NCBI GenBank assembly: GCA_951406725.2
Contig: OX597822.1
Span: forward strand, 49,414,001 to 49,478,000
DNA: 64,000 nt
Source of the DNA: Octopus vulgaris
Lineage: Eukaryota
Direction of reading: 5' to 3'
Within the stretch, counting starts at the first letter, position 1; the number at the start of each line of letters is the position of its first letter. Below the pieces are notes generated by a model that was not told the DNA's origin, searched no databases, and was given only the letters and a program-made list of their open reading frames with translations. This document shows positions 10,111-55,223 of the stretch, piece after piece. The position numbers were made by a program, and so were the translations under genes.

Positions 10111-10339
10111 GGCGAGCTGGCAGAAACGTTAGTACGCCGGGCGAAATGCTAAGCGGTATTTCGTCCGCCGCTACGTTCTGAGTTCAAATTCCGCCGAGAT
10201 CGACTTTGCCTTTCATCCTTTCTGGGTCGATACATTAAGTACCATTTACGCACTGGGGTCGATATAATCGACTTAATCCGTTTGTCTGTCCTTGTTTGTC
10301 CTCTCTGTGTTTAGCCCCTTGTGGGTAGTAAAAGAAATA
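10111..10339 (+). mobile_element. SINE-B, full-length monomer with Tx1-type tail and 9-bp TSD
   Basis: Head with A box (TGGCAGAAACG) and B box (GAGTTCAAATTCC); core GCCTTTCATCCTTT..GGGTCGATA..TTAAGTACC resembling the MetaSINE-type domain; tail ends GAAATA. TSD GGTACTTAC at 10102-10110 and 10340-10348. Confidence 0.9.
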
Positions 10340-10819
10340 GGTACTTACAAGATCAGATGGGAAACTGCTCTCAATTGATTGTTAAAATGAAAATATGCAA
10401 GTACTCAGCAAAAGTTGTTTCTAGATGATGCAACACGGGCAACATACTCGGTGGAACAATTGTAACTTATCTTGGACAGCTTTAAAGAGCCTTCTCAAGA
10501 CGTTGATTTTAACATCAGCTTCAAGAATACGAAAGTACTAGGAAAACTTATTGCGTATTGTCCTACCATTACCATCGACAACTACTGCAATCTGGAAGTA
10601 ATCCATGAATTCTCATACCTCAGCACCACCATCATAGACATCTATAGAGTGTGAGATCAAATGACATACTAAAGGGCTCTTCAGATATAGCCAGATGAAC
10701 GTCTAAGAGAGTATAAAATAACAAATGTAGTATGAAGTGCTTGCGTCCTCAGCACATGCTTTACGGTCGTGATCTACAAAGTTTCGACATCAAACATGAA
10801 CAGCATCTCAACGCCTTCC

Positions 10820-11078
10820 ACCACAAGGGGTTAAATACAGAGAGGACAGACAAGGACAGACAAACGGATTAAGTCGATTATATCGACCCCGGTGCGTAAC
10901 TGGTACTTAATTTATCGACCCCGAAAGGTTGAAAGGCAAAGTCGACCTCGGCAGAATTTGAACTCAGAACGTAGCGGCGGACGAAATACCGCTTAGCATT
11001 TCGCCCGGCGTGCTAACGTTTCTGCCAGCTCGCCGTAAGTACCATCGGTTAACATTCCTAAGAACCTGCTTCAACATA
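10820..11078 (-). repeat. Inverted duplicate of SINE-B plus ~43 bp of its upstream flank
   Basis: Reverse complement of 10068-10324, including non-SINE flank ATGTTGAAGCAGGTTCTTAG..ACCGATGGTACTTAC. Confidence 0.9.
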
Positions 11079-52700: not shown

Positions 52701-53131
52701 CAAGGCACGGTAGTGCCGTCTCGCCGACATGCCCGCGATGTGAGCAGGATAGGGAGACCGTCTTGCACGCATTCGTGGAGTGTCCGGAGTTATCGGGACT
52801 GATAGCTTTTGTAGAACAACTGTTGTCAGTGATGGGAAGAGTACAGCTATCAGCTGAGTCTATCATCGAGATTGTGCCGCCCCCTTTCCTTAACAGGGAA
52901 AGAAAGGCTTGTTTTTTCTGTGTAGTAGCCATACTGAAAGAAACAGTATGGAAGACGCGTACGAAAGGTATAGTGACAGGCACCTTTGTCTCCGGCCAGG
53001 GGTTGATTAACTTTTTTAGTTACCACCTCAGTAGCAAAATCAGGCTGGAGAAGAGGTGTCTGTCACGAGATATGTTTGTGAAAAGATGGAAGCCTGTGGC
53101 ATACAAGATGGGTATGTTTGGCACCAGGTAA
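49730..53131 (+). CDS. ORF2: APE endonuclease, reverse transcriptase and C-terminal zinc finger (1133 aa)
   Basis: APE motifs LNVRGL, ETK, YAP, GDFN, LDR, TDH; linker YWKLN; RT motifs KSPGLDG, RPITLLN, LDQSKAFDRV, VRQGCPLS, YADD; zinc finger CPRC..ETVLHAFVEC. Uninterrupted. Confidence 0.97.
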   Translation: MASLNLGCLNVRGLSSKWKQACFLDDLRSHDIHVMVATETKLDSLQTFSPLLNGYEKIMSPGQTGGRGGVVVLIRKDLALQTSTVYVDPEGGLVVLDVTYSSKAFRLIGLYAPCARGFQTDFYRRLEGFLVTSKTLVILGDFNAIVDVHIDSVGSIYRKVNSRLVDLLKRFQLADRYRLDHPNVPEWTWMSGDGRFKSYLDRIVIRTRDKSSFSCPQLVQVPYTDHRMVTCRLDIDSTLKIGTGYWKLNKSILTREAYRSRIKVLVQRALTGAVVNNRWWFTLKRAIRFESIRFSKQLRLDRARIEGQLVKNLEEALRLGSASHILAARTALDRHLKTKHEGCRVRAKVRALGREGINVAGWARTIETQRGNDATIGSLVDENGCTIKKRDEMCEALHKHFAELFGRCGTLDHGEALRDFLSGGPRLSTREAECCEGPITAEEVIEVLGKCPGEKSPGLDGLPYEFYRSMPNLFGHLLASVYANWQQNGRIPKSASREAVTLIRKDPNKGDEIGNFRPITLLNTELKILAKVLAKRLARVVDKLVGEAQTCAIPGRTIHDNLHLIRYSLERVGKLSGAGGALVHLDQSKAFDRVDHRYLAAVLGEAGLGPTFRGWIAALYSDIESVVKVNGSFSKPFRIERSVRQGCPLSSLLYVLALEPLLRKLEALGGAPHDLWCGRGATAYADDTSIIVADEGQLPVVEEAIKSYEAVAGAKVNKDKSVGLQLGTWRGKPMPSNNVVGRWTEGPVKLLGVWFGPDLQIEKNWSEVANKVTALTQTWSGRALSLLGKAEVVQMFIASVITYRLTVVPCPDLWLNKLERILFRFLWKGGKPLVKRSVCCQKPLKGGLGMPWLRMRKLALRLRHLWLYLDGEQVWSPHVRFYLPQLTSLTDIGAWIKRRPKLSEWHLECRQALQLLSRVGNAGNRSSTTDFYSGLVEIKSEDALGETLGYDENQLINLFRRTFGPGYLDNYQKSLAWQCFRAALPVRDKLSRHGSAVSPTCPRCEQDRETVLHAFVECPELSGLIAFVEQLLSVMGRVQLSAESIIEIVPPPFLNRERKACFFCVVAILKETVWKTRTKGIVTGTFVSGQGLINFFSYHLSSKIRLEKRCLSRDMFVKRWKPVAYKMGMFGTR

Positions 53132-55223
53132 GTGTGACCGGATCAGAAAGTAAAGGTTCTACCCGGATGGCTGGGTGTCCGTCCTTCGACATGATCATTA
53201 ATATTTTTAAACATTGCCTTCGTAAAATTCATTGTTTATAATCTTATCCGTAATTTCATTCGAAAATTGTAACTGTGTTAAGCTACTTCACCCTTTATAT
53301 TTGTCTGTCCTTGTTTGTCCCCTCTTTGTAAATGCCTAAATGGCAAATTATATGAAATAAAGTAGCTTGCTAACCAACCACATGGTTCCGGGTTCAGTCC
53401 CACTGCGTGGCATCTTGGGCAAGTGTCTTCTGCTATAGCCCCGGGTCGACCAATGCCTTGTGAGTGGATTTGGTAGACGGAAACTGAAAGAAGCCTGTCG
53501 TATATATGTATATATATATAAGTGTGTGTGTATATGTTTGTGTGTCTGTGTTTGTCCCCCTAGCATTGCTTGGCAACCGATGCTGGTGTGTTTATGTCCC
53601 CGTAACTTAGTGGTTCGGCAAAAGAGACCGATAGAATAAGTACTGGGCTTACAAAGAATAAGTCCCGGGGTCGATTTGCTCGACTAAAGGCGGTGCTCCA
53701 GCATGGCCGCAGTCAAATGACTGAAACAAGTAAAAGAGTAAAGAGTAAGAGTATTCGATTCGTTCACCCATATGAATTATGTCTCTTAACGCATTTTAAA
53801 TTATTTCTTCAGATATAAATTATACTGGCCAGATATTATTCCTAACTTTTTCTCTCTATATAAAAATGTTTGTGACTTGATGAAGCAAGCTCCAGTTGAC
53901 TATTTTCTGCTGATGAGGCTTAATATAGGTTTTCTATTGCTTACAAAGATGAGCGTTTTATCTCTCTAAAGATTAAATACGATAGATTAATTCTTAAGTT
54001 CTTGAAAATGTTCCACCTTTTCTTTGCGAGTCGGGGTGGGGGGGTTCTGTGTATTCTTGCCAAATCAAAGCGAAATTTCAGTGTTTGAGTATGTCATTCA
54101 GTATATTACATTTTAAACATTTATATTAAATTACACATCTTCCCCCTTTTTTTTCTCCTCCTACAGCAACAATAGCAACTGTTGCTGCTGCTGCTGTAGC
54201 TTCTCCTCCTTCTCCTCCTCCTCCTCCTCCTCCTCCTCCTCCTCCTACTACTACTACTACTACTACTACTAGATAATATTCTCTTAGATACGCTATGTTA
54301 AAAAGCCTGTAATGCGCTGTTGGAACATTCTTGATGGGGGTCCTGTTAAATAAGATTTGAACAGGGGTTAAATAAGTCTTTACTCCCTCTGCCTCACATT
54401 CTCTATCGTTTGTCCCTTCATTCCCCCATTTCCCTATCCCTCTTTCCATTTTATCTCCTCTTCCTTTCCCTATTCACTCCAGTATATTCATTTTATCGCT
54501 CTGTTCTTTTCGCCCCTCCTTCTCTTTCCTTCCTTCCTCATCTACGCATTTCCCTGCCTCCTTGTCCCTTTCTATGTCACACAGAAACATGCATATAACT
54601 TAAACATATTCATTATTACTCTGCAATTTTTACATGTATATAATGAAAGTTTTTTAAAATCTAAATTAAACGGAGATGAAAAGTAATTTCGACATACGTG
54701 CTAAAACAAAGATAATACATCTTTACACACATGCTTTTTTTTCTTTTGGTTACACTTATGTAAACGTTCTAAATTATCGATCTTCTCTCTGTCCCACTTT
54801 TCTCCTCTCCTATCCTAAAATCTCGTCTATTTTATAGCAGAAAACTACTCATGCAGTTTCTTTTAATTCTTTTCATATGATCATTGTATAGCTTTTGCGT
54901 GATCGATACAGCGAGAAACAAGCTTTGAAATTGCTAGGACACATTTTTCATTAGTAAGCATAATTAGTCAGGCTTTAATTTTCTCATTTAAAAGAGAATG
55001 AAAAAATCTAATAAAACTAATAAAATGATCAATTTACACCATCAGTCAGTTAAAAGAAGTACCATAAAATGAAGATCTAACTGTAATTAGCTAATTTTAC
55101 TATTATTATTATTATTATTATTATTATTATTATTATTATTATTATTATCATTATTTATTATTATTATTATTATTATTATTATTATTATTATTATTGTTAT
55201 TATTGTTATTATTATTATTATTG

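Follow-up and report, generated by a model that had tools for sequence, protein, structure and literature searches.

Whether two mobile elements that end alike are partners, and how each of them finds its insertion site, is the question raised by a stretch of 64,000 nucleotides (nt) of the Octopus vulgaris genome (49,414,001-49,478,000 of OX597822.1; the window). It contains a long interspersed element (LINE) of family F1, which interrupts the head of a short interspersed element (SINE), SINE-A, and several copies of a second SINE, SINE-B, with a tail similar to that of the LINE. We find that F1 is site-specific for SINE-A heads, that SINE-B targets one nucleotide of SINE-B and SINE-C heads, and that SINE-B is probably copied in trans by the lineage of a related family, F8, and not by F1. 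The names F1 to F18 and SINE-A, SINE-B and SINE-C are working labels for families in this genome, whose assembly measures 2.8 Gb and whose GC content is 35.8% (60 stretches of 10 kb each at round coordinates). The LINE and the SINE-A copies of the window are listed below (ORF, open reading frame).

47886-47907, plus strand: 5' part of the host SINE-A head with an A-box-like motif; the same head precedes most full-length F1 copies elsewhere
47908-47923, plus strand: 5' copy of the 16-nt target, probably at least partly carried by the LINE (comparison of 5' and 3' variants)
47924-53359, plus strand: full-length L1-group (Tx1-like) LINE, F1 (domains, boundaries, and copies elsewhere that are 98-100% identical)
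48313-49713, plus strand: ORF1 region, frameshifted in the window copy, with a CCHC zinc knuckle (zf-CCHC, E 9e-5)
49730-53131, plus strand: ORF2, uninterrupted, with endonuclease, reverse transcriptase and zf-RVT (reading frame and domain matches)
53300-53359, plus strand: LINE 3' tail, consisting of a pyrimidine tract, a short predicted hairpin and an A-rich end, no poly(A)
53360-53375, plus strand: 3' copy of the 16-nt target
53360-53750, plus strand: rest of the host SINE-A, with a B-box-like motif, body and tail
34966-35396, plus strand: SINE-A with an empty target site; further empty ones at 43835-44005, 47002-47395 and 55700-55977

The LINE splits its host just past the A-like box and before the B-like box, and is flanked by a 16-nt direct repeat. 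A domain scan found an APE-type endonuclease, a reverse transcriptase and a C-terminal zinc finger in ORF2, and the CCHC knuckle in ORF1. The closest solved relative of ORF2 is human L1 ORF2p (E 1e-66), with R2 only at E 1e-19. Judged by its sequence, the element is a member of the L1 group, "Tx1-like" being a label given with no reference elements on the tree, and protein searches with the LINE returned no named Tx1 relative. The F1 5' region yielded no ribozyme, and an Rfam scan of the whole window gave only microsatellite noise, with no transfer RNA (tRNA) among the 150 rows listed out of 210, all under the cut-off. Contigs from four sequencing runs cover most of the LINE, but these may be DNA and were not used as evidence of expression. 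Directly 5' of the insertion, at 47827-47885, the initial 20 nt of the SINE-A head are repeated three more times in tandem.

To what extent is this position characteristic of F1? A search for further copies gave 440 candidates, of which the best 40 were scored and 30, including the window copy, were read. All 30 end at the identical terminal nucleotide, followed by SINE-A in 26 cases, by another F1 in two, and by other elements starting with the target in two; the copies are approximately 99% identical. A pattern for the F1 tail that ignores the flank matched 147 times in the genome, and 87 of the first 100 matches showed the canonical flank, against a background of approximately 102 SINE-A heads per Mb. 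The other 13 comprised a SINE-A variant (3), a deleted SINE-A (1), the opposite strand (2) and other sequences (7), these classes, like those of the F8-tail matches below, being assigned by eye. Not all 147 matches can be taken as F1, since the F1 body was present in 0 of 12 atypical loci: approximately eight represent another, related element with the same last 18 nt, two look like chance and two are tiny inserts. Older copies of the F1 lineage use the same site in all three cases in which a 3' end was found (four fetched). In the two reverse-strand insertions, which have duplications, the motif used is a similar one of the opposite strand, a sign of sequence recognition. F1 is thus site-specific for SINE-A heads. 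These heads, like those of SINE-B, have A and B box-like motifs recognizable by eye, while ARAGORN detected no tRNAs in the window or in 44 loci. Real tRNA genes were rejected as the target on account of this zero and of the SINE-A body, which continues in 26 of the 30 flanks. Transduction of a single SINE-A at the 3' end was rejected because the flanks belong to different subfamilies around a LINE that is 99% identical between copies, and because host heads occur upstream. SINE-A itself is present at high density; a stretch of it is presumably CORE-like, and it may be the octopus SINE OR1 or OR2.

In six full-length F1 copies (L034, L036, L045, L046, L048 and L050) the 5' target copy shows the variant of the LINE, from which the 3' copy in the host departs. 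Of the truncated copies, a true 16-nt duplication matching the host was found in one and was absent from two. F1 therefore likely carries the target at its 5' end and restores the insertion site, which is consistent with the tandem stacks found at the F1 site (L042-L044, L384). The poly(A)-signal hexamer of F1 needs the first target bases for its completion, and this would place target sequence on the end of the F1 RNA. Among the loci read there are also units of 1.5-2.3 kb, situated between target copies, in which an ORF1-like frame is combined with an F1-like tail and ORF2 is lacking. These ORF1-only elements are the clearest riders of F1, and they resemble HAL1, the half-L1 elements that contain only ORF1. 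Up to four of them together with F1 occupy one SINE-A site, with a target copy between each (L384, L383, L032, L031). In L382, two very short tail fragments lie in opposite orientations within one SINE-A site.

SINE-B is a short, non-coding, dispersed, high-copy element with target duplications, and is represented in the window by the following copies.

10111-10339, plus strand: single SINE-B in unique sequence with a 9-nt duplication (10102-10110, 10340-10348)
10821-11040, minus strand: SINE-B without a 3' end, sharing its upstream flank with the copy at 10111 (inverted local duplication)
18743-19319, minus strand: SINE-B array of three units, the second and third of which begin at head position 47
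22859-23270, minus strand: SINE-B array of two units, then another copy at 22640-22846
26295-26825, minus strand: two SINE-B units, then a remnant of a related SINE-C host

The inverted local duplication containing SINE-B and its upstream flank spans 10080-11070. An initial annotation of the window cited four junctions as insertions into SINE heads, two of which (10340 and 18743) turned out to lie in unique sequence, while the LINE does sit between the SINE-A boxes. Its proposal of one target motif for the LINE and SINE-B is not supported, as the sites differ and purine-purine-TA fits only loosely. Insertion is not always between the A and B boxes either: approximately half of SINE-B lies elsewhere, and a second site is inside the A box. 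The sequence preference at the 3' junctions that it had foreseen is strongly non-random. In a 600-kb sample, head position 47 comes next after 18 of 39 SINE-B tails. A flank sample of 293 sequences (1.47 Mb), after exclusion of 58 loci chosen by their position-47 flank, gave 156 tails, of which 71 join position 47, 12 a place near position 15, 12 the same tetramer elsewhere and 61 other sequences, and none the F1 site. SINE heads make up approximately 4% of the genomic sites with the short SINE-B motif. Genome-wide, 31,872 exact junctions were found at position 47 of SINE-B or SINE-C heads, and 85,589 exact SINE-B tail matches with a longer tail pattern. The site differs between subfamilies, T-type copies being found at the tetramer in 76 of 108 cases and C-type copies in 6 of 45 (p 7e-11). 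Both the SINE-B and the F1 target sites are situated within inverted repeats of SINE heads (10128-10160 and 34985-35003 in the window), which may have a role as cruciform or RNA structure.

The arrays can be explained by this preference. SINE-B is homologous to the host head, so the heads would usually merge and leave a 184-nt repeat. Exact junctions that keep the host head are limited to 44 genome-wide, and 21 of the 30 such loci read (20 distinct) have the order head, duplication, full SINE-B, duplication, with a host-specific variant repeated on both sides in at least five. Duplications are approximately 13-17 nt, and SINE-B insertions outside heads retain the short motif inside the duplication. 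Neighbouring units have a median identity of 90%, with 5 of 98 pairs above 97%, and the pairwise difference between SINE-B copies is 10-11%. The SINE-C remnants downstream, at 9.9%, have the divergence of free SINE-C (11.1%, n=42 and 25), well above that of SINE-B (5.8%, p 3e-9). Arrays of SINE-B are independent insertions into older hosts, spaced 184 nt apart. Two observations fit this less well: rare variants are shared between units (14-21%, positions 47-130) without a sharp edge at the duplication, and 4 of 15 SINE-C-hosted arrays carry a head variant present in 0 of 25 SINE-C. Some merged heads come from the incoming copy.

Can the 3' tail tell which LINE copies SINE-B? The tails were correctly located by the initial annotation, at 53300-53359 in the LINE and 10281-10339 in SINE-B, and they have the same terminal hexamer and no poly(A). 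Their 26-nt pyrimidine tract is 25/26 identical (blastn 28/30, E 7.5e-8) and occurs in eight SINE-B units of the window; the identity with the LINE of 24 nt at 23075-23098 extends to 27/28 over 23071-23098. The small stem-loop ascribed to both can be predicted as a 4-bp hairpin, which is not more stable than in shuffled sequences (z -1.5, -0.3 and 0.0), and inverted repeats are visible at the same place of the tail in most of the LINE families. The tail is not a one-off of this LINE, being present in many other LINE families of the genome. Families 61-67% identical to F1 in ORF2 retain the tail type but end in other targets, namely (CT)n in 8/8 loci for the sister family F2 and (ATT)n in 8/8 loci for F3, and a search with zf-RVT yielded further families, the flanks of which are of other kinds or variable. 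In a tree built from 25 C-terminal stretches, all from this genome, F1 groups with F6 and F9-F12 (support 97/95), and F8 pairs with F4, though not firmly (89/85), within a clade that also includes F5 and F7 (100/98). One type of 3' tail is common to the whole Tx1-like radiation, the members of which have differing targets. By eye, the last 24 nt of the SINE-B tail match F4 at 23 positions and F8 at 20, a T-type SINE-B copy shares 27 of its last 33 nt with F8, the upstream tract being poorly shared, and the F1 tail end has another loop and seven extra bases compared to SINE-B. The LINEs that match SINE-B better than F1, i.e., F4 and F8, fall within the same radiation, non-Tx1 LINEs being outside the survey.

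Several other loci of the radiation deserve mention. A complete U1 small nuclear RNA (snRNA) match (125 bits, above the cut-off) lies a few bases past a Tx1-like tail in L266 (836-999); either U1 is the target there, or it forms the head of a next element, as known from crocodilian Tx1. In L258, a U2 match was found in the vicinity on the opposite strand. Several families (L233, L234, L237, L240, L243, L250, L256 and L152, also L154, L160, L244 and L264) are followed by a recurring sequence, the core of which resembles a hammerhead (28 bits in L240, under the cut-off of 34); this sequence is either a target or the elements' own 5' end. In a single locus, L106 (L385), a Tx1-like ORF2 end is followed by a SINE-C-like tail, which suggests a second SINE/Tx1 pair. 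Another family ends in an (ATCT)n microsatellite (L075, L117). Copies of F4, F5 and F7 often precede apparent 5' ends of other LINEs or one recurring repeat, entered at varying positions (L131-L147, L255, L263, L292).

F8 was found with a pattern for AT-rich sequence before the position-47 junction, in 4 of the first 100 of 107 matches, as LINE 3' fragments at position 47. The copy search was performed with the ORF2 end and untranslated region, without tail and flank, and from 326 candidates, with ORF2 pieces mostly 51-69% identical to F1, 40 were scored and 14 read, two of which represent the query event. The other 12 all terminate at position 47 in SINE-B or SINE-C hosts; F8 copies are 88-93% identical to each other. 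A pattern for the F8 tail matched 86 times, with 74 matches on site, two borderline and 10 elsewhere. A 5' duplication was not seen at five truncated copies, although some of the break points may be later insertions.

The hosts of F8 differ by one base from those of SINE-B in many cases. In 53 of 207 heads, positions 42 and 47 of the long head hairpin are changed as a pair, and the variant base starts 0 of 99 SINE-B junctions versus 50 of 74 on-site F8-tail matches. The hosts downstream of these variant F8 junctions mostly carry the other bases linked to the variant (approximately 3 of 56 being SINE-C-like), so that the variant junction base belongs to the host. Four variant F8 places coincide with matches of the F8 copy search at 88-89% identity, and the data suggest that a second F8 subfamily uses the variant heads. 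A tentative extension, which we would not rate as probable, is that SINE-B serves as both cargo and landing pad and co-evolves with a Tx1 lineage, in which case the compensatory two-base change would abolish the motif and protect the subfamily bearing it from self-insertion of SINE-B, and an F8 subfamily would have been retargeted by one base to these very heads. If true, this would be an arms race between a SINE and its carrier LINE, and nature would have provided a series of endonucleases that differ in specificity but share one RNA tail.

Taken together, SINE-B and F8 share the tail and, for the junctions in G-variant hosts, also the site and an overlapping age, whereas SINE-B and F1 have neither site nor age in common. 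Of the initial proposal that "this or a sister Tx1 family" mobilises SINE-B, the sister part therefore holds, with F8 as the likely partner instead of F1. SINE-B is probably copied in trans by the F8 lineage, as far as site, age and tail can tell. A number of findings weigh against this reading. The F8 tail end resembles the C-type, yet position 47 is used by the T-type (67/108 versus 3/45). The tail end of F4 is closer than that of F8, but none of the F4 copies read lies at position 47. Since most of the on-site F8-tail matches are in the head variant that SINE-B does not use, only one F8 subfamily fits. The upstream tract of SINE-B matches F1 and F6, which are in another clade than F8, so that the SINE tail may be mosaic or ancestral and the true driver an unseen relative. 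Finally, the comparison with shuffled sequences lends the tail hairpin no support. Searches for another LINE with the SINE-B tail or site yielded none, neither by patterns (30 of 157 and 28 of 28 loci read, and 30 loci from the 100 strings listed out of 1,025) nor among 102 3' ends (90 of 150 zf-RVT matches and 12 F4-tail matches, partly overlapping). F4 as the only driver was rejected, because its flanks vary.

How might the site be chosen? LINEs insert through target-primed reverse transcription. Here the ORF2 protein would bind the tail, nick a short family-specific motif and prime reverse transcription there, and pairing between element and target would likely sharpen the choice of the site. 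In R1, R2 and SART1, the RNA carries target sequence that pairs with the cleaved target at either end, as described in the parts of two papers covered here (PMC2718515, PMC7265360). In a similar way, transcripts lacking poly(A) may run on into the host at the 3' end and pair there with the strand that was nicked, which has been reported for R1Bm and SART1, and at the 5' end the complementary DNA may anneal to target sequence, as in R1/R2. In the case of F1, the 5' target copy would restore the site, resulting in element stacks.

It is conceivable, though we consider it the less probable course, that self-targeting relies mainly on RNA-DNA homology, so that any loosely specific member such as F4 could drive SINE-B, with F8 as a fellow user of the site. 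The subfamilies do pile up where their own head matches the motif (T-type at 47, C-type near 15, 11/45), junctions with a duplicated head are far rarer than merged ones (44 versus 31,872 exact, with patterns of different length), and F4 is the best match for the tail end. However, F8 uses the same nucleotide without SINE homology, its junction base tracks the host variant, and the off-head insertions of SINE-B keep the short motif within the duplication.

That F1 or its older subfamilies mobilise SINE-B is improbable. Aside from the near identity of the pyrimidine tract, 285 exact SINE-B junctions do occupy the F1 position in SINE-A, inspection of 20 loci by eye showed the host head upstream in 17, and an older member of the F1 lineage may have carried the C-type subfamily. 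Yet 285 is only approximately 1% of the number at position 47, and among the first 100 of them 93 are C-type and 95 use a SINE-A variant that is rare in F1 flanks. Moreover, the flank-blind sample of 156 tails contained none at the F1 site, and the ages differ, F1 copies being almost identical and SINE-B copies not.

Equally unlikely is that targeting is overstated and that the arrays arose by copying of a few master dimers or by tandem duplication at the DNA level. Whole two-unit arrays flanked by duplications do exist at several loci, a few unit pairs exceed 97% identity, variant sharing is above permutation, and multimers could be copied from read-through transcripts. Against this, the duplications are host-specific, the SINE-C remnants show the diversity of free copies (a pairwise distance of 10% at the 5th percentile), and the same site is used by F8. 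A mode of targeting in which RNA polymerase III factors at the A and B boxes tether the elements, known from Dictyostelium TRE5-A, instead of sequence recognition, would suit the position of all three SINE sites in or between A-like and B-like boxes, but is very doubtful, as reverse-strand and off-SINE insertions retain the sequence motif, a one-base host variant separates two kinds of F8 junctions and excludes SINE-B, and sister families target microsatellites.

Target-specific Tx1 families are well known, Dewa and Mutsu among them. For Tx1L, Keno, Kibi and Koshi, the parts of Kojima 2015 covered here (PMC4494074) list a DNA transposon, snRNA genes and microsatellites as targets and name no SINE; Kibi has a (CT)n target, as F2 here. 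The closest parallel in the same source is crocodilian SINEU/Tx1-Mar, with a shared Mariner target and a partnership argued from target and age. As in octopus, Tx1 families and a SINE there target one site inside another transposable element, insertions are in tandem with the duplication in between, and some of the Tx1 families carry U1 heads. Unlike the octopus elements, the crocodilian ones target a Mariner DNA transposon, have snRNA heads and poly(A), and include no LINE with the SINEU-1 3' end, whereas in octopus the targets are tRNA-like SINE heads, the shared tail lacks poly(A) and the SINE targets itself. Since snRNA head, poly(A) and Mariner target are absent, the octopus system works alike without being a member. 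Stringent LINE/SINE pairs share a 3' stem-loop tail, including the L1-clade pairs of maize/sorghum and Chlamydomonas (Ohshima 2013, PMC3747384), and the parts of that review covered contain no Tx1, animal L1-group or site-specific pair. R1, R2 and SART1 resemble the octopus elements in target-RNA annealing, 14-bp duplications and tandem arrays, but belong to other clades, target ribosomal DNA or telomeres and have no SINE cargo. The octopus SINEs OK, OR1 and OR2 (Ohshima and Okada 1994) are cited in the covered parts of PMC4758252 and PMC4824008, octopus repeat papers give L1-Tx1 only as counts in their covered parts (PMC13282606, with no 'target' wording, and PMC8967140), and the part of PMC8869645 covered deals with DNA transposons whose target is the A box of tRNA genes. 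Our literature search found no report of Tx1 elements targeting SINE heads or of such a self-targeting SINE; Repbase, Dfam and subscription papers lay outside it and may hold the families. What is new is the use of SINE heads as targets, the shared non-poly(A) tail and the self-targeting of a SINE.

The F8/SINE-B partnership would supply an animal L1-group LINE/SINE pair with a common tail lacking poly(A) and with nucleotide-precise targeting. Self-targeting explains tens of thousands of SINE arrays with a 184-nt spacing, which repeat annotation would split or misdate. Insertion into SINE promoters may be a safe-harbour strategy that also disables other SINEs. Finally, related families with one tail type have as their targets two SINE heads, a one-base variant and microsatellites, and one of the families is young with intact ORF2 copies. 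With this set it becomes testable which share the endonuclease and which share RNA-DNA pairing have in the choice of a target by a LINE.

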